64,000 bases of DNA from Candidatus Magasanikbacteria bacterium RIFCSPHIGHO2_01_FULL_41_23. GTDB lineage: Bacteria > Patescibacteriota > Patescibacteriia > Magasanikbacterales > UBA922. Each line of letters opens with the position of its first letter. Position 1 is the first letter of the stretch. The translations under genes and the position numbers were made by a program. Below are positions 394 to 54,304 of the stretch, piece by piece. Below the pieces are notes generated by a model, which was not told where the DNA came from, did no database searches, and worked only from the letters and a program-made list of their open reading frames with translations. The stretch is taken from contig MFPT01000002.1 in NCBI GenBank assembly GCA_001782805.1, positions 133,401 to 197,400 on the forward strand, written 5' to 3'.

Positions 394-1662
394 TTATCCC
401 ACAAATCCCTCATCCCGAAATTCAATCATTGCCTCCTCATCAAAATTCTTATCCAACATCGCGATAATACATTTTCCCAAATGGTACCCCAAATTTGGGG
501 GTACTGCATTACCGATTTGTTTATACTGTACCGATGTCGAGCCGGCAAATTTCCAATCGTCGGGAAAAGTTTGGATGCGAGCGTATTCTTGAACAGTCAA
601 CGGCCGAGTTTCTTCTGGGTGACATCGTTCAGTTTGTTTTTGCGCGGGCGCGCAGGTCAAAGTTAAACTCGGCTCATCCCAAGATAATCTTCGTGCCATT
701 CCAGTTTTTCCTCCACCCATAAAATAACTTGCCTTCATATATTCTTTTTGCAAATCTTCCGACAAATCACGCCAACAGCCACCCGGCGGAACTTTTTCCA
801 TTATTTCTTTTTTTCTTTTAGGATATTTTTGTCCTTCAGATTTTGGACAATCTTTAAAAGCTTCACGGAGTGAGACGGTGTAATCTTTTTCTTTGGGGAA
901 AAAGAAAGGAATATTTTTTAAATCACTACGGATACCAATAATTATCAATCTTTCTCTTTTTTGTGGCACATCATGATACTGTGAACGCGCTATTTTGTAA
1001 GCAACTCGATAACCTAACTCTTTCAAAATATTTACCATTATTTCCAGTGTTTTTCCATTTTCATGACGCAACAAACCTTTGACATTTTCCCCCATGATAA
1101 TTTTTGGCTGGACTTCTTTTATACAACGCGCGAATTCAAAAAAAAGTGTTCCGCGCGCATCTTCAAAACCTTTTTTATTACCGGCATAGCTAAATGCCTG
1201 ACACGGAAAACCACCTTCAACTACATCAACTTTACCTTTATATTTTTTAAAATCAATTTTAGCAATATCCTCGTGTACAATATTCCAATCTTTTCGATTT
1301 AATCTTAAAGTAGCAACAGAATTTTTATCAATCTCATTTAACAAAACATGATTGAGCCCAGCGTGATCCAGACCCAAAGCTGTTCCACCCGCGCCAGCAA
1401 ATAAATCAATAACTTTATATTTACTTTTTTGCCTAGTTTTCAAAATTTTATAATTATTTACGGTCGATGTGCCAAAAATTTTACTGTGCAACTTTTTTAA
1501 CTCTTCAATATTAAAAAGCCTATGGTTCAACGGCGAACGATGGGCTTTTATGACTCCCCTTTTATCCCAACGTCGAATCGTATCTGACGATACACCAATT
1601 ACTTCGGCGGCTTCTATGACAGTCAGCATCTGCTGAGTATTTTTGAATAAGGTAGTTTGCAT
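394..1662 (-). CDS. DNA (cytosine-5)-methyltransferase with an N-terminal MerR/excisionase-like HTH domain
   Basis: Motif I DLFAGAGG, motif IV GFPCQAFS, motif VI ENVKGL, QxRxR and the C-terminal GNAV are present; the N-terminal 45 aa (TVIEAAEVIGVSSDTIRRWDKRG) is a helix-turn-helix. Confidence 0.9.
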   Translation of the reverse strand: MQTTLFKNTQQMLTVIEAAEVIGVSSDTIRRWDKRGVIKAHRSPLNHRLFNIEELKKLHSKIFGTSTVNNYKILKTRQKSKYKVIDLFAGAGGTALGLDHAGLNHVLLNEIDKNSVATLRLNRKDWNIVHEDIAKIDFKKYKGKVDVVEGGFPCQAFSYAGNKKGFEDARGTLFFEFARCIKEVQPKIIMGENVKGLLRHENGKTLEIMVNILKELGYRVAYKIARSQYHDVPQKRERLIIIGIRSDLKNIPFFFPKEKDYTVSLREAFKDCPKSEGQKYPKRKKEIMEKVPPGGCWRDLSEDLQKEYMKASYFMGGGKTGMARRLSWDEPSLTLTCAPAQKQTERCHPEETRPLTVQEYARIQTFPDDWKFAGSTSVQYKQIGNAVPPNLGYHLGKCIIAMLDKNFDEEAMIEFRDEGFVG

Positions 1663-2135
1663 ATTGGTATAACTTCAACATAATAACCAACATAGCCTTT
1701 GTATTTGGTGCTTAATAGTTTTTTTAGATCATCATAAATAGCGACTTTGTGATTACCTTTTGTGGTATTGTGTTTATTTTTTACTTCAGCAATTATTTTT
1801 GCATCTTTGTTTACTAGATCTACAACATTCCCTACGCCCAAACTTTCCCAGCCAGTAAAGTGGCCTAAGATTTCTTGATGAAAACTACCCAAAGCATTCT
1901 GGATTGTTTTTTGTACCTGTCGAGCACTTTCTTTTTTCATCCATTCAGCTGACGATATACCGGTCGTCATTACTTCAAAGAGGGCGGAAAATGGATCAAC
2001 AACATTTTTATAAAAATCTTTTTCAGAATTATTTACCGCATTTCTTGCTACACCCAAAACAAATTCAACACCTGAATATAAATCTTGATTGATAATAAAA
2101 GGTAAAAGTTGCTTTTTTGGTATTTGATAATCCAT
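1623..2135 (-). CDS. putative type II restriction endonuclease (PD-(D/E)xK) partnered with the m5C methyltransferase
   Basis: 170-aa ORF whose 3' end overlaps the methyltransferase start by 40 nt; the D...EVK signature (VVDLVNKDAKIIAEVKNK) fits PD-(D/E)xK; no Vsr CFWHGH motif. Confidence 0.55.
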   Translation of the reverse strand: MDYQIPKKQLLPFIINQDLYSGVEFVLGVARNAVNNSEKDFYKNVVDPFSALFEVMTTGISSAEWMKKESARQVQKTIQNALGSFHQEILGHFTGWESLGVGNVVDLVNKDAKIIAEVKNKHNTTKGNHKVAIYDDLKKLLSTKYKGYVGYYVEVIPICKLPYSKILSRC

Positions 2136-10559: not shown

Positions 10560-11969
10560 CTAAATTAAAAACAAAAACACATAGTACGGAATAAAATAGA
10601 CAGTTTGGCCATTCACTTCTTTGCGGTTCATTTCATCTCGGGTTATCACCACACCGTATGTCAATTTTTTTTGTTTCATATAATCTGTCATAACCCGCAG
10701 ATCCTTCACATTGATGGTTCGAGAAAATTTAACCTCAATCGGCACTTGGGTATTTTTTTCCAGTACAATAAAATCAATTTCTTTTTGTCCTTGTCGCCAG
10801 AAACTCAGAGATTCGGTAATACCAGTCCCTTTATACTTTTGTTTCAGCACAATATACACACTATTTTCAATTATTTTTCCAAAGGCCTCCGGAACTTGAT
10901 CAAGATGATTTTCAGTATAGTGATTGAGAGCACAGGTAAAATTAACACACGGAGTATATAATTTTTTCAAAATCCGACCGCGTTTTATGAGGCTCTTATG
11001 ATACTTATACAAAATTTCAAACAAGTAACTTTCTTTTAAGTATTCAAAATATTTTTCAACGGTTTTTTTTGAAATCTCAATCTCTCTACCGATATTGGTT
11101 AATTCAAAAATAGAGCCAATATTATTAAGGAGGTGTCGTGTGATTAATTTAAACTCATCGGCCTTTTCAATATTAAAAATTCTAATGCAATCCAATTGAA
11201 TTTTTCCGATGACTGACTCCACAATATATTCGTGCCTTTGATCAGCGTTGGGTAATTTTCTAGTTTCGGGAAATTGTCCGGTCACCAAATATTCCCTACT
11301 CAGATCAGCGATTATTTTGCCATAGTAGGCATCGTATTGACTTAATGTGCTATAGTTATACGGAAGACTGAATACATCAAATGATAAAGTTGTCTCAACC
11401 TTTTCACCATTAATTCTTAAAAATTCACGGAATGATAGTGGCGGCAAATAGAAATCAAAAATACGGCCGGCCAAACTTTCCCGATTCTTACCTTTCAACA
11501 AGACACTTTGCGATCCGGTAATTATAAATTTAATTTTCTTGCCGGATAAATCGTAGTATCGTTTCAGAACTGATTGCCAATTATCGATGTATTGAATTTC
11601 GTCTAAAAAAATATATATCTGCTCTCCCTGTCCAAAAGAGAGGCTCGGATTATGTATGACATCCTTAAAATAAAGAGATAGGACTTCATCTAAAAATTCT
11701 GTTTTCTGGATTTGGCTGGCATAATCAAAGAGGAAATAAAAAATGTGAGTGGGTTTTGTTTTTTTGGCCAGTAGCTTGGCGATTAGTTGCTTAAGCAGAG
11801 TACTCTTGCCCACCCGTCGCAAACCAACAATGTTGAGTATGAGTGTATGCTCCAAATTATCCTCAAGAATGGAAAACAAATCTCTAGTGGGAAAATCTGA
11901 TTCTTCGATAATATGGCGGTCATTATTCCACCATGGATTTTTTAAATCCAATTCTTGCTTCGTGGGCAT
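10560..11969 (-). CDS. AAA+ ATPase, DUF4143 family (COG1373-like)
   Basis: Walker A GLRRVGKST, Walker B IFLDEIQ, long C-terminal DUF4143-like region. Confidence 0.75.
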   Translation of the reverse strand: MPTKQELDLKNPWWNNDRHIIEESDFPTRDLFSILEDNLEHTLILNIVGLRRVGKSTLLKQLIAKLLAKKTKPTHIFYFLFDYASQIQKTEFLDEVLSLYFKDVIHNPSLSFGQGEQIYIFLDEIQYIDNWQSVLKRYYDLSGKKIKFIITGSQSVLLKGKNRESLAGRIFDFYLPPLSFREFLRINGEKVETTLSFDVFSLPYNYSTLSQYDAYYGKIIADLSREYLVTGQFPETRKLPNADQRHEYIVESVIGKIQLDCIRIFNIEKADEFKLITRHLLNNIGSIFELTNIGREIEISKKTVEKYFEYLKESYLFEILYKYHKSLIKRGRILKKLYTPCVNFTCALNHYTENHLDQVPEAFGKIIENSVYIVLKQKYKGTGITESLSFWRQGQKEIDFIVLEKNTQVPIEVKFSRTINVKDLRVMTDYMKQKKLTYGVVITRDEMNRKEVNGQTVYFIPYYVFLFLI

Positions 11970-15584: not shown

Positions 15585-17174
15585 GTGATCAAAAAAATTT
15601 TTTCAACTCAATCGCATACCATTACGGGCGCGGCCATTATTTTGGGCGGAGCGTCTTTTTTAAGCAGATTAATTGGATTGTTGCGCGACCGATTATTTGC
15701 GCATTATTTTGGCGCGGGCGATATTCTTGATGCGTATTATGCCGCATTTAGAATTCCGGATTTTTTGTTTAATATTTTGTTGGCCGGAGCAATAACGGCC
15801 GGATTCATTCCTATTTTTTGGGAATTATGGCAAAAAAATAAAAATGACGCGTGGCGATTAACGAATAACATTCTAATACTAACCGGAGTTCTTATGGCCT
15901 TGGGTAGTATGGTCGCGTTTATCTGCGCGCCACAATTAACAAAAATGTTGACTCCCGGATTTAGCGCGGAAAAATTGGCATTGACAACTCAGCTTACGCG
16001 CATAATGCTTTTGTCGCCAATTCTTTTGGGATTGAGCGGAGTGATTTCCAGTGTCTTGCATTCGTTTCGACAATTTGTCGCTTTTTCTTTGGCTCCGCTT
16101 ATCTATAATAGCGCGATTATCCTTGGCACTATTTTTTTAGTGCCAATTCTGGGACCAATTGGTTTGGCTTGGGGAGTAGTAATGGGAGCTCTTTTACATT
16201 TATTAATTCAATTGCCCGCGGCCATTAGCCAAGGATATTATTTTCACTGGATATTTAATTTAAAAGATTCGGCAACACGATCAGTCATAAAATTGGTAAT
16301 TCCCCGCACATTGGCAATGGTCGCATTACAAACTAATTTTTTAGTTTTGACGATCATGGCTTCCACTCTTGCCATTGGCAGTATTGCTGTTTTTAATCTC
16401 GCGCAAAATTTATACTATGTTCCTATCGGATTAATCGGGCAATCATTTGCTTTGGCCGCTTTTCCGATTTTTGCCAAAGCAGTGGTGGAAAAAAATGATG
16501 ACGAATTAGTCCGTCATTTTGGCAATGTAGTGCGACAAATATTGTTCTTGATAATCCCTGGAACAATTCTTCTTATATTGTTTCGGGCGCAAATTGTACG
16601 TGTGGTTTTGGGTTCAGGAAAATTTAATTGGACTGACACCATTTTGACATCTGACACGCTGGCGCTTCTTGCGATTTCCTTAACCGCGCATTGTATTATG
16701 CTTATTACGGCCCGGGCTTTGTACGCCTATAAAGATGCGTGGTCAACCGTATGGGCCGGATTGATTGGTGTGGCAATCACAGTATTCTTGAGTATTTTTT
16801 TAAAAAATTATTGGGGAATACGCGGTTTAGGTTTAGCATTATCCGCCTCAATTATTATTCAAACCGCTCTCTTATGGGTTGTATTACGCCGACGAGTAAA
16901 TAATCTGGAAGAAGGTAAAATTATGACTGCTCTCGCAAAAATTTCTTTGGGAAGTGTGGTCTTGGGAATAGTAGCGCAAATAACCAAGTATGGTGTGGCC
17001 GGTGTCGTGGATATGACCCGATGGTGGGGCATCTTGAGTCAAGGCTTAATTTGTGGTACTGTAGGAATTCTCGCCTATGGTTTTGTTTGCCATATTCTAA
17101 AGCTGGAAGAAATGGAATTGTTCAAAGAAAGTTTTAAAAAACGCTGGCTTAAGATTTGGCATGTTACCGAGTAA
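15585..17174 (+). CDS. murJ: lipid II flippase MurJ/MviN
   Basis: 529-aa polytopic protein; N-terminus LSRLIGLLRDRLFAHYFGAGDILDAYYAAFRIPDFLFN is typical of MurJ. Confidence 0.85.
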   Translation: MIKKIFSTQSHTITGAAIILGGASFLSRLIGLLRDRLFAHYFGAGDILDAYYAAFRIPDFLFNILLAGAITAGFIPIFWELWQKNKNDAWRLTNNILILTGVLMALGSMVAFICAPQLTKMLTPGFSAEKLALTTQLTRIMLLSPILLGLSGVISSVLHSFRQFVAFSLAPLIYNSAIILGTIFLVPILGPIGLAWGVVMGALLHLLIQLPAAISQGYYFHWIFNLKDSATRSVIKLVIPRTLAMVALQTNFLVLTIMASTLAIGSIAVFNLAQNLYYVPIGLIGQSFALAAFPIFAKAVVEKNDDELVRHFGNVVRQILFLIIPGTILLILFRAQIVRVVLGSGKFNWTDTILTSDTLALLAISLTAHCIMLITARALYAYKDAWSTVWAGLIGVAITVFLSIFLKNYWGIRGLGLALSASIIIQTALLWVVLRRRVNNLEEGKIMTALAKISLGSVVLGIVAQITKYGVAGVVDMTRWWGILSQGLICGTVGILAYGFVCHILKLEEMELFKESFKKRWLKIWHVTE

Positions 17175-17182
17175 AAAATTAA

Positions 17183-17330
17183 GGTTCCCTGCAAATCTTT
17201 TTCTGAGACCCTCACCCATTCGACTAACGCTCACTTCGTGGTGACCTCAGTGGAACCAGGGTATCGGGCTCAAAAAAGCTTTAGGAGTTTATCCCGACTT
17301 TTGTCGGGAGTCCACCTTAATTTTTTTGAA
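17183..17330 (+). repeat. intergenic hairpin/terminator repeat element, copy A
   Basis: ctgcaaatctttttctgag...ctcaaaaaagctttaggagtttatcccgacttttgtcggga plus a T-run; conserved arms shared with 32022-32121 and 35352-35400. Confidence 0.7.
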
Positions 17331-19318: not shown

Positions 19319-19353
19319 TAATTTCAGTAGTAGGTAATTTTGTTTTTCAGTAA
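19319..19353. repeat. 35-bp perfect inverted repeat, left arm
   Basis: taatttcagtagtaggtaattttgtttttcagtaa is the exact reverse complement of 19445-19479. Confidence 0.9.
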
Positions 19354-19444
19354 AACTCGCTATTCTTCTCCTCTCCCTAGTTTCTATCCCTATTGACAGC
19401 TAATCTATATATAACCAAGCCAGTGGAAAGGATGCTCGTACACA

Positions 19445-19479
19445 TTACTGAAAAACAAAATTACCTACTACTGAAATTA
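19445..19479. repeat. 35-bp perfect inverted repeat, right arm
   Basis: ttactgaaaaacaaaattacctactactgaaatta; a 91-bp spacer separates the arms. Confidence 0.9.
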
Positions 19480-21919: not shown

Positions 21920-23380
21920 TTAGTGTAATATATGCCAGTTATGAAGCAAAGCTTCATGCTTTAGTGCCGGCTTGGGTCGCACGGCAATTTTATATTTTAC
22001 TGATTTTAACATTGGGATGTCTGATGGTGAATCACCGTACGCATAACTCTTTTCTAAATCAATAGTATATTTCTTGGCCAAACGTTTAACTTGAACTGCT
22101 TTTTCTTCCCCAAAACAGAGACGATTGACCAAACCAGTGTAAAGACCATTTTTTTTCTCCAATGAAGTCACCGCAATATCCCGCGCCTTAAAAAACTTTT
22201 GAAATTGTCGAGCAAGCGGCGGAATGACTTCGCTGATCAAAAAAATCTGATGGCCGCGTTCACTATGATCTTTCATCACGACCATTAAATTATGCACTAG
22301 ATCTTTAATGATTTCTGTCTGAAAAAACGGCTCGGCAATTTTGGCAAGTTCAGCTTCCTTCCAACCGGCAGTAAATTGGTAAGCTCTTTTCATCAAAGTT
22401 TCGTGTGGCAACAAACCGATTTTTTCCAAAAACAAATGACCGATGATTTGCCATGTTACCAACGATGAAACTTTTCCATGGCACTGTAAATATTTCAAAA
22501 AGGTTTGTTGCGAATAATATTTGTACAAAGTTCGATCAATATCCACGAATACACCGATACGCTCGGGGTTTTTGTCATACAAGTCAGTTGGAATGGCGCG
22601 ATGAGGCAACATACCATAGAGTCTATCGGCAATTTCTTGTGAATACATTTTGACCGCGTGACGATAGTGTGTTTTTTTTGATAGAGTTGGCAGTTTCATT
22701 TCCGAAGAGACATTAATATAAATCGGACCTGGCCGAAATCGCAATCCACCGGGAAAAATATGATCCATGTTGGTAAGCGCGAGTGGTACAATTGGAATAT
22801 TGGCAGAAATAGCAACACGCGCTGCGCCAGTATGAATATAATGCACTTCTCCGCCCCACTCTACATGACCTTCAGGAAAAATCAACAATGATTTTTTTTC
22901 TTTGGTCGCGTATTGAATCAATTTTTCCAAGGCGACACGCTGTTCATTTGTCCTAGTACAATGAACCGCATCATACGCATCACGAGCCACATCAACAACA
23001 TCCATTTTTAGAAACCAGATATTAAAGGGAAATTTTTGTAATTCGGCCGGAGCTGTTAGCGGGATTAATTCCGGCCCTAAAAAAGAAAAAAATAAAAAGC
23101 CATCTATCATGGTGGGGTGATTGGAAATATATAAACGAACGTGTTCGGTCGGACTGGGAATTTTTCCCGATTGATGAATGCGCAGACCCATGATTTTAAA
23201 AATAGTTTGATTCAAGCCATGAGCCGCAATGCGCCACATTCGGGGACGATCTTCGCGCACAACAAAACGCTCAGTTAATAATAACCAGGGAAGCAGAACA
23301 ATATGGCCACCAATAAATAGTAGCCGTAAAAAAATTCCTAGAATTTTTTGTACGCCAGATTTACCTAACAGGCGAAGCAT
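21920..23380 (-). CDS. fusion protein: lysophospholipid acyltransferase (PlsC-like) N-terminal domain + HAD-IB hydrolase C-terminal domain
   Basis: NHPTMIDG (HX4D-like) and FPEG acyltransferase motifs; then FVDIDRTL (DxDxT) and GDSPSDIPML HAD motifs. Confidence 0.65.
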   Translation of the reverse strand: MLRLLGKSGVQKILGIFLRLLFIGGHIVLLPWLLLTERFVVREDRPRMWRIAAHGLNQTIFKIMGLRIHQSGKIPSPTEHVRLYISNHPTMIDGFLFFSFLGPELIPLTAPAELQKFPFNIWFLKMDVVDVARDAYDAVHCTRTNEQRVALEKLIQYATKEKKSLLIFPEGHVEWGGEVHYIHTGAARVAISANIPIVPLALTNMDHIFPGGLRFRPGPIYINVSSEMKLPTLSKKTHYRHAVKMYSQEIADRLYGMLPHRAIPTDLYDKNPERIGVFVDIDRTLYKYYSQQTFLKYLQCHGKVSSLVTWQIIGHLFLEKIGLLPHETLMKRAYQFTAGWKEAELAKIAEPFFQTEIIKDLVHNLMVVMKDHSERGHQIFLISEVIPPLARQFQKFFKARDIAVTSLEKKNGLYTGLVNRLCFGEEKAVQVKRLAKKYTIDLEKSYAYGDSPSDIPMLKSVKYKIAVRPKPALKHEALLHNWHILH

Positions 23381-23505
23381 AGTGAAAATAAGATGATAGA
23401 ATCATACCATATCATTGACAAATGAGTACAATTTGTATAGATTAGGACTGATTCTTCGCATGGTGCGAGGGATTAATTTGAACATCAGACAAGAGGAGCG
23501 GTGAG

Positions 23506-25278
23506 ATGGAATCTCAAAAAATAACACCAGCTTCTTGGCTGGATGTGTGTGGCAAAAACTGGTATATCTTCAGGGAGTTCCTGAAGATAAGTGGCTACGA
23601 TCCCAGCATGGTCGAGGCCATCATTCAACTAGTTTTGGAAGATCCGGACACAGAGGTGTTGGAGAAAAGCCGTCTTGAAAAAGAGTGGCTCACTCTCCAA
23701 CAATACCAGCTGGTAGAAAATGCGGTCGTCGAAACGACCGGTCATGTTCACCATTTGTTCGAGGCTGGACGATTTTCACACCAAATCCAGTTTGGTGGAT
23801 CGATCGCCTTGGACAAACTGAACCGTTTCTTTTTTCGGCACATCACCGAACCGGGAACCGGTTTTGGGTTCGTACCCAGCGCCACCGAAGGATTCAACGA
23901 AAACAAAACGTTCGAATTCGTGGTGACAGAGCGTGGTCACATGATTATCCGGCTGAAATATTTGCCGGGGCCAAACGGTATCATGAGAAACGCGACCGAG
24001 GACTATCGGTCAGCGATCTATTATATCCCAGGAATTTTCCGGGGTGTCGTAGACACATGGTACAGGAACGAAGAAACAGCCGGAGAGGTGAAGCTCCTGA
24101 GTGTTGACGTTCCTCCGCAAGTGATCATCGCGCGAGAGGCAGAGGAGGCAGGTGTTGACATGATTGTTGACGCCATTGACGAAAGTCAGCCTTATCTGTG
24201 TATCAATGGGATTGTCTATGGCCTCATCGTGGAACACGGTGAGAAAAAAGCAATTCTCATTACTCGCGACGTGGAAACGCCCTGTCGGATCCACGGCACT
24301 CTTCACCCGATTCTTAGGAAAGGTGAAATCTATCGCTGGAAAGAGCCGATCGAAACCGAGTATGACATTCGGTGGAGAAAAAATCGGCTGTTCACACTGT
24401 TCAGTCGAAGTCGGTTTGGCTCAAGTAAGGCGATTAAAGCAGGCTTGTCTGCCGAAGCGAGGATGGCTGACGCAGAAGCACGCCTCGCTGTCGTGAATGC
24501 AAATTCACGGGTGGCGCTGGCAGAATCTGCAGTTTCCGAAGCCAAACTCGAAGCTGCGCAAGCGAGAGCAGAAGCTGCGCAAGCGCGAGCCGATGTCGAA
24601 GCGGCCGGGAAGCGAAAGCTCCGTGCCATCTTCGAACGAGCAGCTCCGAGTCTGGGCGTGGCCGACGCTCTTCTTTCCGGCACTTTCCGTCCCATCAACC
24701 TGAAATCCGTGATTATTCAGTGCGATGTGGTAGGATTTAAGCGACTGTCTCAGTCTTGGGGACCGGTTCAGACAAACCAACGCATGACGCGAATGTTTGA
24801 GCTGATAGAATCCATTGCGCGAAAAAAGGGGTTCTTCCCTTTCAAGCGCATCGGCGACGCCCTCATCATCGCGTACGCTGAGTGGCCGCGGAGAAGCAAT
24901 GAGGCTTCGCCGTACCAGTCATTCGGGGAAGCCGAAGACATGGCGATGGTTCTCACTAAGGAGTTCCACAGATTGGCCAAGGAAGAATTGGCAATCATGT
25001 TCCGAATCGGTGTTGACCTTGGTGAGGTGCTCTGGTGCAACCAGACTACTGACCCAGAGGAAGTCCGGTTCGATGCAACTGGGAATCCTTTAACTGGGGC
25101 TGCGCGAGCTGAAGCCGCGGCAGAACCAGGAAGAACTTCGGTCACTGAGAACTTTGCCAGGTCTCGAGAATTGCGACTTGGTCCAGAAATGAAAAATTCT
25201 GGATTGAGAAGTCGTGGTAGGATTCGAGACAAAAACGGAGATCCTCTGGATGTCCGTGACGTCATCGAGGATAACTAA
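23506..25278 (+). CDS. class III nucleotidyl (adenylate/guanylate) cyclase with an unknown 390-aa N-terminal domain and a coiled-coil linker
   Basis: The C-terminal 190 aa carry CYCc motifs: IQCDVVGFKRLS (metal Asp), KRIGDALIIAY (second Asp), RIGVDLGEVLW, FDATGNPLTGAARAE; preceded by the ARMADAEARLA...AQARAEAAQARADVEAAGKRK coiled coil; gene is about 53% GC. Confidence 0.8.
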   Translation: MESQKITPASWLDVCGKNWYIFREFLKISGYDPSMVEAIIQLVLEDPDTEVLEKSRLEKEWLTLQQYQLVENAVVETTGHVHHLFEAGRFSHQIQFGGSIALDKLNRFFFRHITEPGTGFGFVPSATEGFNENKTFEFVVTERGHMIIRLKYLPGPNGIMRNATEDYRSAIYYIPGIFRGVVDTWYRNEETAGEVKLLSVDVPPQVIIAREAEEAGVDMIVDAIDESQPYLCINGIVYGLIVEHGEKKAILITRDVETPCRIHGTLHPILRKGEIYRWKEPIETEYDIRWRKNRLFTLFSRSRFGSSKAIKAGLSAEARMADAEARLAVVNANSRVALAESAVSEAKLEAAQARAEAAQARADVEAAGKRKLRAIFERAAPSLGVADALLSGTFRPINLKSVIIQCDVVGFKRLSQSWGPVQTNQRMTRMFELIESIARKKGFFPFKRIGDALIIAYAEWPRRSNEASPYQSFGEAEDMAMVLTKEFHRLAKEELAIMFRIGVDLGEVLWCNQTTDPEEVRFDATGNPLTGAARAEAAAEPGRTSVTENFARSRELRLGPEMKNSGLRSRGRIRDKNGDPLDVRDVIEDN

Positions 25279-25423: not shown

Positions 25424-26521
25424 TTATTTTTCATTTTTCAATTCTTCAATTAATTTTTTGGCGGATCGTGATAATTTTTTTGGCACATCAATAATCACTG
25501 TAACAAATTGATCACCGCGCCGACTACCATTAATTTCCGGTACACCAAGATCGCGCAAACGAAATTGCTGTTGCGATTGCGTGCCTTCGGGGATGGCTAA
25601 TTTTTTTTCACCATCCAGTGTTTGGATTACCACCGAGTCTCCGAGCGCAGCTTGAGGAAATGAAATATGTGTTTCGGTAAAAATATTTTGTCCCTCACGA
25701 TGAAAGGCTTTATCCGCGCGCACTCGAACCCGAACATATAAATCTCCGGCCACACCACCAACTCCCGGATGCTCACCTTTCCCCGATAGACGAATGGTTC
25801 CGCCATCATCAATGCCCGCTGGGATTTTAATCGTATATTTGGAATCATTTCGTTCCACTCCCCCGCCATTACAATGTTTACATTTTTTTTCAGCGACATT
25901 GCCGGCACCATGACAATTATCACAAGTCGCCACGCTTTGCATGGCGCCTAAAATAGTTTGTTGCACGCGACGCACTTGGCCTTGCCCTCCGCATACGGCG
26001 CATTTTTTATGTCCGCTTCCCGGTTCAGCACCACTGCCGTTACACACGGCGCAGGCATTGCGTTTGGTTAAATGAATTTCTTTTTCAATTCCAAAAACCG
26101 CTTCGCGAAAATTTAATTCCACATCCACCTGAATGTCTTGACCGCGTTTTTGCCCGCCACGACTATTTCCGCCACCAAAAAAATCTCCGAACAAATCACC
26201 AAATCCTCCACCAAAATCAAATTGCGCGCCATTTTGAAAACCACCTTGCTGGCCACGCGCCGCGCGCATAAAATCTTCCCAGCCAGCGCCACCGCCAAAT
26301 CCGCCCTGCTGTTCAAAATCAGCACCAAATTGATCGTATTGTTTACGTTTTTCTTCATTGCCCAATACCTGAAACGCCTCATTCAGTTCTTTAAATTTAG
26401 CTTCATCGCCGCCTTTCTTGTCCGGATGATGCTGATGCGCTAATTTACGAAAGGCTTTTTTTATTTCTTCCGCGTTGGCGGTTTTTTCCACGCCGATAAT
26501 TTTGTAATAATCTTTGGCCAT
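25424..26521 (-). CDS. dnaJ: chaperone DnaJ
   Basis: J domain with HPD (HQHHPDKK), G/F-rich region, four CxxCxGxG zinc-finger repeats. Confidence 0.95.
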   Translation of the reverse strand: MAKDYYKIIGVEKTANAEEIKKAFRKLAHQHHPDKKGGDEAKFKELNEAFQVLGNEEKRKQYDQFGADFEQQGGFGGGAGWEDFMRAARGQQGGFQNGAQFDFGGGFGDLFGDFFGGGNSRGGQKRGQDIQVDVELNFREAVFGIEKEIHLTKRNACAVCNGSGAEPGSGHKKCAVCGGQGQVRRVQQTILGAMQSVATCDNCHGAGNVAEKKCKHCNGGGVERNDSKYTIKIPAGIDDGGTIRLSGKGEHPGVGGVAGDLYVRVRVRADKAFHREGQNIFTETHISFPQAALGDSVVIQTLDGEKKLAIPEGTQSQQQFRLRDLGVPEINGSRRGDQFVTVIIDVPKKLSRSAKKLIEELKNEK

Positions 26522-26529
26522 AAAAATTA

Positions 26530-27408
26530 TTATTTGTTTAATTTTTTCTGCCCATTTGCCGACAAAAAATTATTATTACTGATGATTGATTTTCCGGTTT
26601 TGCTTTCTAATAATTTCCTGGCACTCTTGGCCACGCCGCCGCCTTTTTTGGCGGCTCGGGCGTTTGGCATATAGCCTTCGGCTTTTTCAGCGTCAGCAAT
26701 TTGATTGGTAGAGAGCTCGGCGAGTGCGGTAAAAATTAATTCAGCCTCAGTCATGTGATCACGCAAATTTTCTCGTTTCAATTTTTTCAGATTTTTATGT
26801 TTGCGCGTGGTCATGCCAGTCCACTCGGAGTGAATCACGTCCGTGAGTTTCGCATATTCAATATCTTCTTTCAAGCCATGCGTTCCCCAATAATCCGTTA
26901 ATTTATTGCGCACTTCTTGCCCGCGCATGCGCTGTTCAATCCATTTTTCTGAATAACCCAACGCTTGCCAATTTTTTCGTGCGCGATTTAAGGAGCGCTC
27001 GGGGTCAACGGTTTCCTGCAAGCGTTCATAACCAACTTTGGCGAGCCAGAGTTTGAAGGGTTCGGCTTTTGGAGAAGGGATTGACTGGATGATGCGGAGA
27101 GCAGTTTCAACATCACTTACATCAGTTTCACGTTTCTTCCCATCCTGAGCCAACAATTTCAACTGGTGACATTTTGTCACCGATTCATTTCCCTCTTTTC
27201 CTAGTCGTTCCTTAAGTTTATTCCAATATTTTCGGGCTGTCTGAAAATCAGGTTGTTCGGTCAATACCCGAACAATATCAACAATACTAAAATACCATTT
27301 TTCCTCTTGCTCGCTCCATATTCGACGCACTGATTGCTGTTCAAATAAGACAATAGATTTTTCGGGAGACAATGCCCCCTCCTTTTTCTTTGGCATGTTT
27401 TTAAGCAT
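26530..27408 (-). CDS. DNA-damage-inducible protein D-like protein (Bro-N domain)
   Basis: N-terminus IVLFEQQSVRRIWSEQEEKWYFSIVDIVRVL...WLAKVGYERLQE follows the DinD/Bro-N pattern; sits between dnaK and dnaJ. Confidence 0.5.
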   Translation of the reverse strand: MLKNMPKKKEGALSPEKSIVLFEQQSVRRIWSEQEEKWYFSIVDIVRVLTEQPDFQTARKYWNKLKERLGKEGNESVTKCHQLKLLAQDGKKRETDVSDVETALRIIQSIPSPKAEPFKLWLAKVGYERLQETVDPERSLNRARKNWQALGYSEKWIEQRMRGQEVRNKLTDYWGTHGLKEDIEYAKLTDVIHSEWTGMTTRKHKNLKKLKRENLRDHMTEAELIFTALAELSTNQIADAEKAEGYMPNARAAKKGGGVAKSARKLLESKTGKSIISNNNFLSANGQKKLNK

Positions 27409-27437: not shown

Positions 27438-27878
27438 TTATCGAATGGGTTTTTTAAGCAAAGCACGCTCCAAATCATTAATGACTACTTTATCTTCAAA
27501 AATAAAATCAGTTAAATCGAGGGCTTCTTGCGCACTAAACCATTTACCGTACTCACCCTCTCCAATGGTAATCGTATCTTCCCAATTAAGCGGTGGCTGA
27601 AATAAAAAAATAAATTTAATACTTTTTAAAAACTCATAACGGTTAAAGAATGTAACTTCATTAAATTTAATGTCCATATTCAATTCTTCTTTCATCTCTC
27701 GTTGTAAAGAGAATTCGGGAGTTTCATTATTTTCCGCGCCGCCTCCCCAAAAGCCAAAATAATTCGGTAAAGTTTTTTGATCCGGAGATCTTTTTTGCAA
27801 AAAAACTTTAACGGTTCCCTGTTCTAAAATATAGGGAAGTAAAATGGAAATCTGTCTTTTTTCAAATTGCATAATCAA
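27438..27878 (-). CDS. NUDIX hydrolase
   Basis: Nudix box GGGAENNETPEFSLQREMKEELNMDI (GX5EX7REUXEEXGU). Confidence 0.7.
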   Translation of the reverse strand: MIMQFEKRQISILLPYILEQGTVKVFLQKRSPDQKTLPNYFGFWGGGAENNETPEFSLQREMKEELNMDIKFNEVTFFNRYEFLKSIKFIFLFQPPLNWEDTITIGEGEYGKWFSAQEALDLTDFIFEDKVVINDLERALLKKPIR

Positions 27879-30008: not shown

Positions 30009-30584
30009 TTAATCTGCCTTTTTCGCCACAATCACCTTCGCCACTTTCACCACTTTTCCTTTCATTATATATCCGCCATCAATTTCTCGAATAATAGTGT
30101 GTTCCGGCATCTCACTCACCTCTTCTCCCACACTATCATGCATTCGCGGATCAAACATTTCGCCAACGGTTTTTATTTCTTCAATCTGATGGGCTTTTAA
30201 GATATCGCCAAATTGTTTCATGATATAACCAATCCCTTGCGACCAATTGAGCCATTTTTTACCATCACTGCTTTCCGTTTGACTTTCTTCCACAACGTTC
30301 GGGACAGAGACAAACGCTTTTTTAAAATTATCATAGACAGGAATAAATTCTTCCAACACGCGCAGTTCGCTCCACGCTGCCCAATCTTTTTTTTGCTCGG
30401 CAACTTCGCGTTGCAAATTTTGGTAATCAGCCACTGCTCTTTGCCAGCCAGTCCGCAATGTTTCATTTTCTTTTTGCAATTGACCGGCCTCGTCATTAAT
30501 TTGTGCATTATTATTTTGTGTATCATTGACATCTTCTTCCGGCATAATCGGCTTTGTTGTTTGATTATCATCGATATTAGTCAT
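30009..30584 (-). CDS. grpE: nucleotide exchange factor GrpE
   Basis: Coiled-coil N-terminus, then a GrpE beta-sheet C-terminus (REIDGGYIMKGKVVKVAKV). Confidence 0.85.
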   Translation of the reverse strand: MTNIDDNQTTKPIMPEEDVNDTQNNNAQINDEAGQLQKENETLRTGWQRAVADYQNLQREVAEQKKDWAAWSELRVLEEFIPVYDNFKKAFVSVPNVVEESQTESSDGKKWLNWSQGIGYIMKQFGDILKAHQIEEIKTVGEMFDPRMHDSVGEEVSEMPEHTIIREIDGGYIMKGKVVKVAKVIVAKKAD

Positions 30585-31260
30585 ACTGGTTTTTTATAAA
30601 ATCAATTAAAGATTTACCTTTGGAATAATCCATACGGTGCGGTCCCAAAATCGTCAGCAATTTGCCACCAGGCAAACGCGCGCCAATCACACTGCAAACT
30701 CCGCCAAACGGATTTTCCGCACCAATGAAAATATGGGAAAAATCATCATCAAACTGTTCAAAGACTTCCTCAATATTTTCTTCACATTCATCAAAAATAT
30801 GCGATACGTCCACTGTTTGCGTCGAATCCTGAAACTCCGGCTGGGAAAATAAATTAGATAATCCGGTATAATACACTGTATTCCGGCCAAATGCCAGAAC
30901 TACGGCACTGTTCATTTCACCGGCGATTAATTTGCCCAATTGCTTTAATTGAATATTCTCCTCATCGTTTTCAGTGGTCAAAGTTTCAATGTTCACTTTT
31001 ATTTTTTTGGACAGTTCCTTTGGTCCTAATAATTCTTGAACATAAAAACGATAGCCTGTTTCCGTAGGAATCCGACCGGCCGAAACATGGGGATGGGTTA
31101 AAAAACCCGCGTCTTCCAAATCCCGCATCTCATTGCGCACCGTCGCGTCACTCATATCTAGGCTATATTCTGACACCAAAAATTTGGAGCCGATCGGTTC
31201 AGCCGTTTCAATATAGCTTTCCACAATCAGGCGCAATAAATTGTGCCGGCGATTAACCAT
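30577..31260 (-). CDS. hrcA: heat-inducible transcription repressor HrcA (short form)
   Basis: N-terminal winged helix RRHNLLRLIVESYIETAEPIGSKFLV; a CIRCE operator lies immediately upstream; 227 aa. Confidence 0.8.
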   Translation of the reverse strand: MVNRRHNLLRLIVESYIETAEPIGSKFLVSEYSLDMSDATVRNEMRDLEDAGFLTHPHVSAGRIPTETGYRFYVQELLGPKELSKKIKVNIETLTTENDEENIQLKQLGKLIAGEMNSAVVLAFGRNTVYYTGLSNLFSQPEFQDSTQTVDVSHIFDECEENIEEVFEQFDDDFSHIFIGAENPFGGVCSVIGARLPGGKLLTILGPHRMDYSKGKSLIDFIKNQYD

Positions 31261-31283: not shown

Positions 31284-31310
31284 TTAGCACTCAAATAGGT
31301 AGAGTGTTAA
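31284..31310. promoter_or_regulatory. CIRCE operator (HrcA binding site)
   Basis: TTAGCACTC-aaataggta-GAGTGTTAA matches TTAGCACTC-N9-GAGTGCTAA with one mismatch, 24 nt upstream of the hrcA ATG. Confidence 0.85.
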
Positions 31311-31991: not shown

Positions 31992-32021
31992 ATTTTTTTG
32001 AAATTATGGTATTAAAAATAA

Positions 32022-32121
32022 AAATTCACTGCAAATCTTTTTCTGAGATCCGCCCGACCGGGACGGACTCAAAAAAGCTTTAGGAGTTTATCCCGACTTG
32101 TCGGGGTTCCATTTTTATTTT
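32022..32121 (+). repeat. intergenic hairpin/terminator repeat element, copy B
   Basis: aaaataaaaattcactgcaaatcttttt + 65-nt insert + cttgtcggggttccatttttattttt; same arms as copies A and C. Confidence 0.7.
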
Positions 32122-38182: not shown

Positions 38183-39334
38183 TTATCTTTCAATAAAATG
38201 ACGCACAATACTTTCAATAGTAATACATTCAAAATGAGCATTTGGATAGACGGTTTTGAATGAAATCGGCGCGTTAGCCATTTCCTTCCATTTGCATTCA
38301 TAAGCAAAAATATCTTTACCTCCACTCAATGATTCAACAAAATCCACTTCACCTCCCTGTCTATTCCTCCAAAAATGTATATCACTTGAACGCTGACTAT
38401 AAGCGCGCTCCTTTATTTTTTCAGCAATAAAAAAATTCTCAAATATCGCGCCCTTATCCGGTCGAATATCTATCGAATCAGTATTGCCGATGAGTGCGTT
38501 TCTTATCCCGACATCATAAAAATATATTTTGTGACTCTTATTAATCTCTTTTGTTTTATTGGTATAAAGCGGTGTCAAACGAAAAATAATAAAAGCCTGT
38601 TCAAGCAGATTTATATAATTATAGATAGTATCTCTACTCACGCCGACTTCTTTCGCCAGCTCTGTATACGAAGCCTCGCTTCCAATACGCAAAGCAAGAA
38701 GTTTTACCAGTTTTTCAAAAGCAAACGAGTTGCGTATATCTCCAAATAAAAATAAATCTTTGAACAGATAATCGCCGGCTAGCTCTTTTATAAGTATCGC
38801 CTTTTCTTCTCTGGAATTGGCGTTAACAATTCCTGGATACAAACCGAATGTCAGATAGGAATCAAGTTCCTTGTCTATATTTATCTTCCCATATGCGTCA
38901 ACAAGCTCTTTAATTGATAATGGATATAAATAAAATTTACGATTTCTTCCAGTCAATGGCTCATTTAATTTATTGGCTAATTCAAATGAAGATGATCCGC
39001 TAGCAATAACTCGTGCATCTTCCACATTGTCCGCTATCAGTTTAAGCGTAGTGCCAATATCTTTTACTCTTTGTGCTTCGTCAATTACTACTAATTCATA
39101 GCCGGACACGAGCGAAGCCAGTTCTTTGGCGGATTTATGTTCAAGTAAAAGGGCTTCTTTAGGATCGTCTCCCTGTAAATACAAGGTATTGGAAAACTTG
39201 GCCATGATAGACTTTATCAAAGTAGTTTTGCCAACCTGTCGCGCACCATAAAGCACCAAAATTGGTTTTTTACCTATATTGTCATAGATTTGATCAAAAA
39301 TTGTTCTTATATAATTCATAGGTATAATATACAA
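38183..39334 (-). CDS. AAA+ ATPase, DUF4143 family (second paralog)
   Basis: Walker A GARQVGKTT, Walker B VVIDEAQ; same architecture as 10560-11969. Confidence 0.75.
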   Translation of the reverse strand: MYIIPMNYIRTIFDQIYDNIGKKPILVLYGARQVGKTTLIKSIMAKFSNTLYLQGDDPKEALLLEHKSAKELASLVSGYELVVIDEAQRVKDIGTTLKLIADNVEDARVIASGSSSFELANKLNEPLTGRNRKFYLYPLSIKELVDAYGKINIDKELDSYLTFGLYPGIVNANSREEKAILIKELAGDYLFKDLFLFGDIRNSFAFEKLVKLLALRIGSEASYTELAKEVGVSRDTIYNYINLLEQAFIIFRLTPLYTNKTKEINKSHKIYFYDVGIRNALIGNTDSIDIRPDKGAIFENFFIAEKIKERAYSQRSSDIHFWRNRQGGEVDFVESLSGGKDIFAYECKWKEMANAPISFKTVYPNAHFECITIESIVRHFIER

Positions 39335-47755: not shown

Positions 47756-48880
47756 CTATGAAGCAGTAAAGGTTATGACGCCATTACAACTACCTCCTAA
47801 AGCAGTCCCTGCAGTACTAGGAACTATATCTAAAATCCACCAAGTAGTTGAGGGTGCTTCAGTAGTAGTAACCGTTTGCTTACCATATCTTATAGCTAAA
47901 TTTCCAGAAGTTCTAAATGCTTCAGCACTGTTTGATGAAGAAACAACTTTTGTAGTAGCTTGAGTAGTATAACTAGTAAGCGTTGATGTTGTGTAGGCTA
48001 GACTTGATACACCGATAGTTCCAACTGTACAATTAAACGGATTGCTCTGTACTTGAATTGTAGTAGAGGCATTGTTACCACTATTAATTATACGTATCGA
48101 TTGCGCCGATCCTATACTTCCGACAACACCTGATGCCGCACCATAGGCAATTGAACCAAAATCCAAAGTGGAAGAAACATTGATGGATGTCAGTGTCGCA
48201 AGTTCAAAGTTAATTGCAGTAGATGTAGCGGAACGAGCACCATTACTATCAATGGCAATTGCTTCAGCCTTCCAATTTTGGGCTGAATAAGCACCGCCAG
48301 CCGAACCAGCACCACCCGAATCAGTGGCATCAGCAAAATGCTTGATAGGGAAAGTACATCTAAAACCTACTTGAACAGTAGAGCTTGGTGTACAACCATT
48401 ATCGATAAAAATACAACGACTAGTACTGGTAATCAAGGGATCGCCATCACCCGTGTTATCATTAGAATTAATGTAGCACCTCATATCATTTTTTTCTGTG
48501 GTACTGGAAGAACAACCTAGACCAGGTACAGTGTTGTGACGATAGACATATACTTCAAGCCGACCACTGGTACTGGCAACTTCAAAACAACCATTGTTGT
48601 CACTGACTTTGCCATATACATATAACTGTGTGTAAGTCTGTTCATTGAGAGTAAGAGGGGTGGTACTAGGAGAACTGAGCAAAGTTCCCGCTCCTGAAGT
48701 ACTGGTGTTAACCGTAATACTGTCAATCGTAGGCGTGGCGTTACTGACAGTTGCAGAAAAAGTGTTATCGTCGGCTTGAGAACGCAGTGAAACAAATACA
48801 AGGAGTATAAGCACACCGGCCACTCCCAGAAAGAGAGCAACAAGATAGTGGTTATACTTAGTTTGGGGATGTTCTTGCAT
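47756..48880 (-). CDS. Ser/Thr-rich cell-surface protein with an N-terminal TM anchor
   Basis: N-terminal TM helix; low-complexity S/T/G-rich body with paired Cys; its C-terminal 300 aa are paralogous to the C-terminus of the 1254-aa protein. Confidence 0.55.
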   Translation of the reverse strand: MQEHPQTKYNHYLVALFLGVAGVLILLVFVSLRSQADDNTFSATVSNATPTIDSITVNTSTSGAGTLLSSPSTTPLTLNEQTYTQLYVYGKVSDNNGCFEVASTSGRLEVYVYRHNTVPGLGCSSSTTEKNDMRCYINSNDNTGDGDPLITSTSRCIFIDNGCTPSSTVQVGFRCTFPIKHFADATDSGGAGSAGGAYSAQNWKAEAIAIDSNGARSATSTAINFELATLTSINVSSTLDFGSIAYGAASGVVGSIGSAQSIRIINSGNNASTTIQVQSNPFNCTVGTIGVSSLAYTTSTLTSYTTQATTKVVSSSNSAEAFRTSGNLAIRYGKQTVTTTEAPSTTWWILDIVPSTAGTALGGSCNGVITFTAS

Positions 48881-48911
48881 AATCGTACATAATATGATTT
48901 AAAATAATGGA

Positions 48912-49190
48912 TTATTTTTTGTCTTTTTTTAAAACCTCTACTGATACATTTGTTGCGTCATCAGTTGTACCCTTAACAAATGCCTTGATCTTTACGGTGT
49001 CATCTGGACTTGAATCACCAGGAGTTGCCGCAGGTGCCGAGGGTAAAGGGACAGCTTTTGTTCGTGTATACCAACTTCGTGGTTTACTATTTTTTTGTGA
49101 TGTTGGTTGCGCGAGGATAATTATCCCAGCCAAGATAGAAATCCCTACCCATCCAATACCGATGGGAATAAGATATTTACTCATATACAC
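48912..49190 (-). CDS. small membrane-anchored protein (92 aa)
   Basis: One TM helix plus a Pro/Ser-rich tail. Confidence 0.35.
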   Translation of the reverse strand: MYMSKYLIPIGIGWVGISILAGIIILAQPTSQKNSKPRSWYTRTKAVPLPSAPAATPGDSSPDDTVKIKAFVKGTTDDATNVSVEVLKKDKK

Positions 49191-49315
49191 CTCCTCTCAA
49201 AATAACGGTCTGCTTATAACTCATAGAATAAAATTAAACGTATCTTTATTAAATTAATTTAATTATACATTATTTTGCTAGATATATATATATCAAAATT
49301 TTAGCTGTGGATAAA

Positions 49316-50533: not shown

Positions 50534-50553
50534 AAAAAAATAATTAAGTACTT

Positions 50554-51447
50554 TTAATAAGTACTTTTAAATTTTTTCCGAAAAACAAAGCCAATGCCAA
50601 TACACAGAATTACGAAAATTACTCCTAAACCGATGATTTTCCCGGAAAAAGTAGATTGTGGTGTCGTAGAAAGTGGGGATACCGGTCGACCAATTGTTTT
50701 CATAATAGTTGCCGTACCCACGACCACTCCTTTTGATTGAATGTTAATTTTGAAACTATAATTACCCGGAGACAAAAATTTTGTGATTGGTACTGTAAAA
50801 AGCCGGTTAGTCATGGGTGCAAGTAAGCCAGAGACAATGGGAATAGTTTCATTAAAAACCATTGATCCATCCAGTATCCCTTCAAGAGTCAGATCGTCAA
50901 TGGTTACTGGCACGTTACCACTGTTTACTCCTACAAAAGATACGTCTAATTTTTCTGGAGATTCGTTCAAAGAATTAATACTAATATTTCTCACTCCAAA
51001 ATCAGAAATTTCCTTGTCAGTAACGGAAAAATTAATTTTTCCCGAAATATTTGAAAGAAATGAAAATTCATCGGTACTTTGTTTTCCTGTGGGACTTACA
51101 AGAATTTCCACTGTGTAGTTTTTAGGTTTTGCCTGACGTGGCTCCACAGAAAAATCCAAGGGTACTTTTTTAACTCCGGGAGAAAATTTCAAAATATTAC
51201 TTTTAAAATGGATGAATTCTTTGCCTTCGTTTTGTAATTCAATTGAATAATATTGAGTTTCATCCGTGTCTGACCGAGTAATAAATATGGTTCGCTCTAC
51301 AGTACTGCCATTTCTTACCCCATTAATCTCCGTGTATGATGGACTAATGCCTAATGCTTCCACACAAACTGTCCAGCCAAAACTAGCAACTACTGTAATA
51401 AAAATAAGCAAACTTTTGTTTGTCCGCGCAGCACACTGAATCATCAT
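50554..51447 (-). CDS. cell-surface protein, GISP-motif family, paralog 2
   Basis: Signal peptide, ALGISPSYTEINGV, C-terminal TM plus RKKFKSTY. Confidence 0.55.
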   Translation of the reverse strand: MMIQCAARTNKSLLIFITVVASFGWTVCVEALGISPSYTEINGVRNGSTVERTIFITRSDTDETQYYSIELQNEGKEFIHFKSNILKFSPGVKKVPLDFSVEPRQAKPKNYTVEILVSPTGKQSTDEFSFLSNISGKINFSVTDKEISDFGVRNISINSLNESPEKLDVSFVGVNSGNVPVTIDDLTLEGILDGSMVFNETIPIVSGLLAPMTNRLFTVPITKFLSPGNYSFKINIQSKGVVVGTATIMKTIGRPVSPLSTTPQSTFSGKIIGLGVIFVILCIGIGFVFRKKFKSTY

Positions 51448-51471
51448 ATATTTTTTTTAAATAAGAGTCAC

Positions 51472-53071: not shown

Positions 53072-53105
53072 ATAGTATACTGAACTTATCTATTTATTTT
53101 TACTT

Positions 53106-54297: not shown

Positions 54298-54304
54298 AAA
54301 ATAA

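Follow-up and report, generated by a model that had tools for sequence, protein, structure and literature searches.

In soluble guanylate cyclase (sGC), a heterodimer, an H-NOX domain is followed by a PAS/HNOBA domain, a coiled coil and a nucleotidyl cyclase domain of class III. Bacterial H-NOX proteins have been described in the literature as stand-alone proteins that act in trans, their targets being kinases or diguanylate cyclases (PMC8846402), or as associated with GGDEF proteins. The stand-alone proteins of Shewanella (HnoX), Nostoc (Alr2278) and Thermoanaerobacter (Tar4 H-NOX) bind haem through an invariant His of helix alphaF together with a YxSxR motif. Among multidomain class III cyclases, the mycobacterial proteins Rv1264/Rv2212 and Rv1625c and the cyanobacterial protein CyaB1 place an N-terminal regulator over a homodimeric cyclase of the Lys/Asp type, and fatty acids act as modulators of Rv1264 and Rv2212. 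Class III motifs are also present in the Pycsar cyclases, which carry an Arg or a Lys four residues before the second metal-binding Asp (PMC11224242). The gene analysed here is located in a 64,000-nucleotide stretch of contig MFPT01000002.1 from Candidatus Magasanikbacteria bacterium RIFCSPHIGHO2_01_FULL_41_23 (the window) and encodes a protein, termed the sensor cyclase below, in which a module of H-NOX fold is connected by a helical linker to a class III cyclase. It is read here, with reasonable though not high confidence, as a soluble enzyme that makes cyclic AMP (cAMP), is set by a haem-less H-NOX-fold module and is paired with a lipid enzyme.

Compared with sGC, the sensor cyclase has a small beta-rich subdomain in the place of PAS/HNOBA, for which no Pfam match was obtained in the window protein or in the 52 members of its family. 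The proximal His is missing, the YxSxR motif is degraded and the Glu/Cys pair is replaced by Lys/Asp. All catalytic residues are found on one chain, so that a homodimer is expected in place of the sGC heterodimer. The host is a tiny symbiotic bacterium of the candidate phyla radiation (CPR), and sequence identity to sGC amounts to 7–12% with no profile-level similarity. Relative to the stand-alone H-NOX proteins, the window domain lacks the haem-ligand residues, and a cyclic-nucleotide cyclase is joined to it in cis. An N-terminal regulator over a Lys/Asp cyclase is shared with the mycobacterial and cyanobacterial enzymes; the sensor of the window protein belongs, however, to no described family. 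Mycobacterial cyclases gave the best sequence matches to its catalytic domain among PDB cyclases, at a low level of similarity (single-sequence search, E about 0.1).

Protein and family

Proteins 100% identical to the sensor cyclase are present in public databases as OGH64991.1 and UniRef100_A0A1F6N0G8 (Candidatus Magasanikbacteria), with no more annotation than "hypothetical" or "Guanylate cyclase domain-containing protein". When 5.8 billion proteins were searched by word index with the single sequence, one 99% copy and one 45% homologue were returned, and the same kind of search using the family profile returned only the near-identical P0001, which is the protein itself (family members and related loci are cited by P and L numbers, respectively). 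The family was recovered when 1.84 billion cluster representatives were scanned exhaustively by HMMER with a profile of residues 1–300, a scan that identified 52 proteins, 48 of them full-length (550–911 residues). Sensor, coiled coil and C-terminal cyclase were present in all 48, and no further Pfam domain was detected in any member of the family. As judged from this census, the N-terminal module is a rare family in its own right that occurs only fused to a cyclase. The 52 homologous clusters and the retention of positional orthologues, one of them in a metagenome-assembled genome of Candidatus Magasanikiibacteriota (a member of the Patescibacteria/CPR), rule out a chance open reading frame (ORF) and establish the gene as genuine.

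Metagenome and viral contigs searched with a 6-sequence profile yielded nothing. Literature searches returned no description of the family, and nothing among the published bacterial H-NOX proteins resembled it. The sensor cyclase contains no hydrophobic or transmembrane segment and, by this measure, is a soluble protein; the cytoplasmic location proposed in the preliminary description, an annotation made from the sequence alone, was supported to that extent.

Catalytic domain

The same description had placed a class III cyclase at the C-terminus. The Pfam family Guanylate_cyc (PF00211) matched residues 403–553 with E 5.1e-11 and 42.9 bits (cut-off 21.9), and both metal-binding Asp residues aligned to those of solved cyclases. 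The catalytic register was set by alignment to solved cyclases and to the closest homologue. In this register, the metal-binding pair consists of D407, within DVVGF, and D451, within IGDA (KRIGDA), and R500 lies within RIGVDLGEV; all three motifs had been quoted earlier and do line up with catalytic positions. K576 is present as well. The segment FDATGNPLTGAARAE carries D523, T530 and R534, the last of which is the transition-state Arg (in AAR). Inspection of the substrate-specifying residues, which had been proposed as a check, showed an adenylate-type Lys/Asp pair made up of K447, four residues before D451, and D523, in FDATG. From these residues, the product is most likely cAMP formed from ATP.

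D407, D451 and R500 are invariant in the 48 full-length members. The pair that specifies the nucleobase is variable and takes 14 forms in the same set, K/E (19) and K/D (13) being followed by N/H, N/P and others. PF00211 was matched at E<=1e-3 by half of the family (26/52).

One residue departs from the expected pattern. The motif TGNPLTGAARAE had been called canonical in the preliminary description, a statement that does not apply to the window protein: the ribose-orienting Asn of this motif (N1025 of the C2 domain of mammalian adenylyl cyclase, where the Arg partner is R1029) is Thr530 here. An impaired or pseudo-cyclase could be proposed on this basis, in which Thr530 cripples catalysis in the window genome and the protein serves mainly in ligand binding or scaffolding. 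In line with that proposal, the Asn is present in the 45% orthologue P0002, and 24 of the 48 full-length members deviate from the canonical D,D,N,R set in at least one residue. Such a loss of function is nevertheless regarded as very doubtful. The metal Asp pair, R500, R534 and K576 are all strictly retained, the ORF is uninterrupted, and the side chains found at position 530 (Thr, Asp, Gln) still offer hydrogen bonding. The substitution also recurs, with Asn kept in 27 of 48 relatives, Thr in 3 and Asp in 9, which suggests a tolerated variant.

N-terminal sensor

No Pfam or NCBIfam family was matched by residues 1–400, and comparison of the N-terminal profile with PDB sequences returned nothing at E<=10. 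The N-terminus had been described as matching no recognisable domain, a view that was overturned at the level of structure. An AlphaFold2 model of residues 1–303, built from a 26-sequence alignment (pLDDT 89.9, pTM 0.88), shows over residues ~9–221 an H-NOX fold, a fold characterised by seven helices and a four-stranded sheet, followed by a beta-rich subdomain (residues 225–303) in which the motifs ITxDxxTPC and GEIYR are conserved. Two independent structure searches agreed on this fold: the best structural matches were genuine haem-binding H-NOX domains, including that of human sGC beta1, and with Foldseek 36 of the top 37 matches to the sensor model were H-NOX domains. In the other search, non-haem proteins ranked lower, namely the VirS N-terminal domain (9.6), YslB (8.4), TRAPP Bet3 (8.0) and DmpR/V4R (about 7). 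These phenol-sensing V4R/DmpR, VirS/AraC N-terminal, YslB and Bet3 domains are structurally less similar to the window sensor than true H-NOX domains, have other outputs (AAA+/HTH or none) and share no sequence similarity with it. A viral structure library gave no meaningful match. Neither Pfam nor NCBIfam contains the sensor domain, for which a new family could be established, with the polar signature N18, G79-H80, L84, N133-K134 (K134 being invariant), D166, S169, G176 and W185.

Given these structural matches and an order of H-NOX, coiled coil and cyclase that mirrors sGC, a haem-based sensor of NO, O2 or CO has to be weighed, that is, a single-chain counterpart of sGC holding haem through a non-canonical ligand such as His80, in which the cyclase would be switched by gas binding. 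This His is conserved in 48 of the 52 members, and Y152, the Tyr of YxSxR, is Tyr in 37 and His in 10 of them. The remainder of the haem site is poorly retained. No conserved His was found before beta1, where known H-NOX domains hold the proximal ligand: across residues 92–131, no alignment column contains His in >=5 of the 52 sequences, and the position of H112 in the window protein is occupied by F, W or Y in most of the family. YxSxR has lost its Ser, a 12-residue insertion standing where it would be expected, and only 20 of the 52 members retain the Arg (R168). His80 itself starts the alphaD-equivalent helix, far from the canonical haem site (by motif alignment made by eye).

Profile comparison pointed the same way. 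The window protein had no match to HNOB (PF07700) at E<=1, and none of the 52 members had one at 1e-3. Alignment of the sensor with Tt H-NOX by hhalign gave a probability of 0.2%, which is not significant, and paired only strand beta2 and helix alphaG (Tt Y131 with Y152, Tt R135 with R168). Haem synthesis and respiration are not known from CPR bacteria, which also counts against a gas sensor. Since neither the proximal His nor an intact YxSxR motif is present, the domain has the H-NOX fold yet is better kept apart from the H-NOX family. From these residues, the sensor is most likely haem-less, and the gas-sensing alternative is considered highly unlikely.

Linker and transducer

A coiled-coil linker of the signalling-helix type had been proposed between an N-terminal region of 390 residues and the cyclase. 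The linker is indeed Ala/Glu/Arg-rich and predicted to be helical; its true extent is smaller, at only residues ~305–402 including the transducer-like segment (Table 1). Helices at 316–340 and 347–379 appear in a full-length AlphaFold model of low confidence (2-sequence alignment, pLDDT 35). The linker and residues 381–402 also align to the signalling helix of the atrial natriuretic peptide receptor (GC-A), within a weak overall match (E 0.12).

Spacing within this region is conserved on the cyclase side, with P381 near-invariant and 26 residues from P381 to D407 in most members. Upstream of this point the linker is typically 49–51 residues long and reaches 85 in the window protein, a surplus of 35 residues or exactly five heptads over the family mode. 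Length changes in heptad units preserve the register, as a coiled coil needing constant phase would require. A tandem duplication of one exact heptad in the window linker is in frame (period 21, 2.0 copies, 95% match by TRF). In approximately 7 of the 52 members (P0015, P0025, P0035, P0040, P0041, P0043 and P0045), a strongly hydrophobic helix is located at the sensor–linker junction, equivalent to window residues ~281–305. It is absent from the window protein; some family members may thus be associated with the membrane.

Genomic partner

The two genes adjoining the cyclase had been named as an acyltransferase–HAD fusion and dnaJ, and both identities were confirmed by Pfam. The fusion protein matched TIGR01490 (HAD-IB) at 113.5 bits, over the cut-off, and the PlsC structure 5kym at E 2.6e-8, and has a single N-terminal hydrophobic membrane anchor. 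On these matches it is a PlsC-type lysophospholipid acyltransferase fused to a HAD-IB phosphatase. The gene order recJ, rnhA, acyltransferase–HAD (-), cyclase (+), dnaJ (-) and dnaK (-) is kept in the genome of the 45% homologue.

The pairing extends over the family. Of 10 cyclase-anchored loci whose upstream sequence is informative, 9 have the partner gene adjoining the cyclase. It adjoins in L001/L002, L003, L007, L009, L010, L012, L013 and L014. Distant family members, at 23–36% identity, have the divergent partner in all of these except L001/L002, and in L012, L013 and L014 the remaining neighbours are entirely different. In a reciprocal test, metagenomic loci were collected by means of the acyltransferase–HAD profile, and the cyclase adjoined in 5 of 7 informative orthologous loci; the two genes are convergent rather than divergent in L022. 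In L007 (positions 2–941), the partner appears as two overlapping ORFs, owing to a frameshift or pseudogene or to an assembly error. The designation of the cyclase as an orphan was therefore not sustained, the acyltransferase–HAD gene being a family-wide partner even where other neighbours differ.

The related statement that no effector gene lies next door was borne out at the window locus. A search for CAP/CNB (cyclic-nucleotide-binding), GAF and HD-GYP partners had been suggested, and no cyclic-nucleotide-binding, GAF, HD-GYP or other signalling protein was detected among the 49 window ORFs scanned. No signalling protein was found beside any family member, and no CRP-like ORF was found in 245 kb comprising the window and related loci, by a single-sequence search of limited sensitivity.

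Composition and replacement of the gene

No other gene in the window is as rich in GC as the cyclase gene, which has 51.6% compared with a mean of 40.5% for the other genes (z 3.3). Its GC content at third codon positions (GC3) is 0.54, compared with 0.39 expected from the amino acids, a surplus of 0.15. About half of the GC excess is attributable to an Ala/Glu/Arg/Gly-rich composition and the remainder to codon choice. An ORF of 151 residues without a Pfam match has the window's top GC3 (0.553) and is an outlier like the cyclase.

The atypical composition had led to the gene being called foreign-looking, which implies a recently acquired gene without an integrated role. The GC richness and unusual codon choice are real; a recent one-off transfer is contradicted by synteny, in that the same position is filled in relatives whose flanking genes are 63–89% identical. 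The pairing with the same partner gene throughout the family argues in the same direction. In most family loci, whatever the GC content of the host, the gene exceeds its flanks by 5 to 19 points, and the highest GC3 is 0.69 (exceptions being L008, L022 and L014). A family-wide excess gives no evidence for a single recent transfer, and recent import is barely credible as an explanation.

Comparison of relatives revealed a conflict between the cyclase and its flanks. In L001, the cyclase is about 45–49% identical to that of the window, compared with 63–89% for neighbouring genes. By its flanks, the closest relative is L010, where DnaJ is 86% identical (74% in L001) and the N-terminus of the acyltransferase 84% (44% in L001). 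Both L010 flanks are 79% nucleotide-identical to those of the window, yet the L010 cyclase is only 34% identical. Nucleotide similarity to L010 is lost at ~23411, shortly before the predicted promoter of the cyclase, and returns at 25424. The window cyclase is instead nearest to that of the more distant L001, and from this conflict the cyclase gene appears to have been exchanged as a cassette between conserved flanks. A diversity-generating retroelement was rejected as the source of the hypervariability, no template/variable repeat pair being found within 20 kb, and the nearby RVT_3/RNase H gene, considered as a possible retroelement part, is an ordinary rnhA conserved in relatives.

Such replacement could reflect a conflict or defence cyclase similar to Pycsar or Pucsar, in which a phage or host cue would elicit a lineage-specific cyclic nucleotide acting on an effector encoded elsewhere, and an arms race would explain the turnover. 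The sensor cyclase resembles PycC in having a class III-type core, a variable nucleobase pocket with its 14 pair forms, and fast evolution, and the PADLOC PycC model PDLC00734 weakly matched residues 330–582 (E 1.1e-8, 32.6 bits). The persistently atypical GC content, the cassette-like replacement between 79%-identical flanks and the presence of candidate defence genes PDC-S13 and PDC-S07 at a distance of 1.2 kb are also in keeping with a defence role. The PycC score is, however, below that of the generic Pfam cyclase family, a pattern to be expected of class III domains in general, and the large N-terminal sensor and housekeeping-type partner set the window system apart from Pycsar. No adjoining effector (PycTM, PycTIR or a similar CNB-TM or CNB-TIR protein) was found in the window or in any of about 15 related loci, where lipid or housekeeping genes stand beside the cyclase and the sole conserved partner is a lipid-synthesis enzyme. 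Neither flanking mobile-element genes nor viral homologues or viral fold matches were found, and no presence/absence polymorphism was seen among the sampled syntenic relatives. A defence function is consequently judged unlikely.

Predicted promoter region and other features of the window

Coordinates of all features are presented in Table 1. A consensus scan of the region between the cyclase and its partner identified two opposed promoter candidates whose -35 hexamers overlap (23415–23421), and on the strength of these matches the region would function as a divergent promoter. The TTGACA hexamer is conserved in L001, L010, L003 and L007. The 60-nt segment of the 5' untranslated region that holds the predicted hairpin folds at -14.6 kcal/mol (z -1.7). 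Equivalent hairpins with other arm sequences occur in L001, L010 and L012, with weak statistics (z only -0.4 to -1.7). A riboswitch was rejected on account of these statistics and the absence of an Rfam match.

Co-regulation with the heat-shock genes dnaJ, dnaK and hrcA was likewise discarded, as the sole CIRCE operator is upstream of hrcA, 6 kb away, with none near the cyclase. This operator, TTAGCACTC-N9-GAGTGTTAA, has 1 mismatch where zero occurrences were expected by chance, and lies just upstream of hrcA, at the head of the hrcA-grpE-dnaK-dnaJ cluster. Next to dnaJ are a BRO-N domain ORF, which matched the PADLOC candidate defence family PDC-S13 (E 1.7e-120), and an adjoining NUDIX ORF that matched PDC-S07. 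The pair looks inserted into the heat-shock cluster, because L001 has only an 83-residue ORF between dnaJ and dnaK.

Elsewhere in the window, a C5 cytosine methylase with an N-terminal MerR-type helix-turn-helix is overlapped by an Eco47II-family endonuclease ORF, forming an Eco47II-type restriction-modification pair; the endonuclease ORF has only 170 residues, with 145 of 202 profile positions matched. Two paralogous AAA_14/DUF4143 ATPases are present, the first of which matched PADLOC PDC-S01 (E 3.5e-61). The intergenic regions after murJ and after yidC have in common two blocks of 36–38 nt at equal spacing (87–97% identity), and could represent a terminator or regulatory element that is repeated. 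The region between lepA and recJ holds an inverted repeat of 35 nt, perfect in sequence, whose arms are separated by a 91-nt spacer. Seven consecutive ORFs without a Pfam match, including one of 1254 residues, lie next to a signal peptidase gene and may encode CPR-specific surface or pilus proteins.

Table 1 Coordinates of the sensor cyclase gene, its parts and other features of the window.
Feature	Position	Strand	Remarks
Sensor cyclase ORF	23506-25278	+	ATG to stop; 590 aa plus stop
H-NOX-fold sensor domain	23530-24168	+	aa ~9-221
Beta-rich subdomain, short helix at end	24178-24414	+	aa 225-303; model secondary structure
Ala/Glu/Arg-rich helical linker, putative parallel coiled coil	24418-24645	+	aa 305-380
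21-nt tandem duplication, EAAQARA twice	24550-24590	+	TRF; one exact heptad
Transducer-like segment, PSLGVADALLSGTF...	24646-24711	+	aa 381-402
Class III nucleotidyl cyclase catalytic domain	24712-25263	+	aa 403-586; Pfam, PDB alignments, family census
D407 codon	24724-24726	+	Metal-binding Asp
K447 codon	24844-24846	+	Specificity pair
D451 codon	24856-24858	+	Metal-binding Asp
R500 codon	25003-25005	+	
D523 codon	25072-25074	+	Specificity pair
T530 codon	25093-25095	+	In place of Asn (N1025 of mammalian enzyme)
R534 codon	25105-25107	+	Transition-state Arg
K576 codon	25231-25233	+	
Divergent promoter region (candidate)	23393-23443	.	Consensus scan, 10/12 matches each
TTGACA-17-TAGATT, would drive cyclase	23415-23443	+	Consensus scan
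TTGTCA-17-TATCAT, would drive acyltransferase gene	23421-23393	-	Consensus scan
60-nt 5' untranslated segment	23446-23505	+	
12-bp hairpin, predicted 5' end of cyclase mRNA	23449-23475	+	RNA fold
Acyltransferase-HAD partner	21920-23380	-	486 aa; divergent from cyclase; Pfam Acyltransferase and HAD
dnaJ	25424-26521	-	Neighbour on the cyclase's other side
BRO-N domain ORF	26530-27408	-	
NUDIX ORF	27438-27878	-	
hrcA	30577-31260	-	
CIRCE operator	31284-31310		
C5 cytosine methylase	394-1662	-	
Eco47II-family endonuclease ORF	1623-2135	-	
AAA_14/DUF4143 ATPase, first	10560-11969		
AAA_14/DUF4143 ATPase, second	38183-39334		
Shared blocks after murJ	17174-17300		
Shared blocks after yidC	32014-32099		
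35-nt inverted repeat, lepA-recJ	19319-19479		
Seven ORFs without Pfam match	47756-58995		
1254-aa ORF among these	55231-58995	-	
151-aa ORF, GC3 outlier	62658-63113		

Discussion

In the mechanism proposed for the sensor cyclase, activity would be set by an N-terminal ligand-binding module consisting of the haem-less H-NOX-fold domain and the small beta subdomain. The ligand state would be passed through the parallel coiled coil, acting as a signalling helix, and then through the transducer of fixed 26-residue length, thereby positioning the two catalytic domains of a probable homodimer. The catalytic dimer would convert ATP to cAMP as its most likely product, to be read by a nucleotide receptor presumably encoded elsewhere in the genome. 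This mechanical logic is likened to that of the soluble and receptor guanylate cyclases. The signal would most plausibly be a hydrophobic or amphipathic metabolite tied to the acquisition or remodelling of membrane lipids. Because the gene is paired with a phospholipid-synthesis enzyme and the non-haem relatives of the fold have hydrophobic ligands, a lipid-related signal is, by analogy, the leading but unproven candidate for what the module possibly detects.

Several observations weigh against this reading. The Thr530 substitution means that the window copy may be a slow enzyme of lower turnover. A Lys before the second metal Asp is also present in pyrimidine cyclases (PMC11224242), so that ATP is the favoured and not the proven substrate. 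One locus type, L004–L006, the exception among the ten cyclase-anchored loci, has no adjoining partner, the cyclase being located between folC and topA. The 64-kb window and related loci yielded neither a cyclic-nucleotide receptor nor a phosphodiesterase, which leaves the pathway incomplete there. Cassette-like replacement combined with a variable specificity pair is unusual for a housekeeping sensor. Finally, the suggestion of a lipid ligand draws solely on the gene pairing and on the ligands of the non-haem fold relatives.

A bolder interpretation, which is offered tentatively and as less probable than the mechanism above, takes the two genes as a lineage-specific module of CPR/Patescibacteria that is under diversifying selection. 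In it, the haem-less receptor would read a lipid derived from the host, or some other ligand related to membranes, and turn it into a cyclic-nucleotide signal coupled to the PlsC–HAD enzyme of lipid remodelling. The cassette exchange, the variation of the nucleobase pocket and the heptad-wise retuning of the linker are the basis for suggesting such selection. The module would then be a new symbiont–host sensing or conflict system and the first bacterial family to combine H-NOX, coiled coil and cyclase, an arrangement otherwise known from eukaryotic NO receptors only.

What is new in the family is the sensor module, its restriction to CPR bacteria, the fixed lipid-enzyme partner and the cassette-like mode of evolution; the enzymatic output is conventional. 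A fixed genomic partner together with cassette replacement, persistently high GC content and a variable pocket constitutes an unusual evolutionary regime. The direct fusion of an H-NOX fold to a class III cyclase in bacteria bears on the origin of the architecture of the animal NO receptor, with the haem site unconserved. In the tiny genomes of CPR/Patescibacteria hardly any signal transduction can be recognised, and for the question of how these bacteria sense their hosts the family is a concrete candidate sensor. It provides a confidently modelled sensor module, wired to a second-messenger enzyme and genetically tied to the lipid metabolism that these lipid auxotrophs must coordinate with the host.

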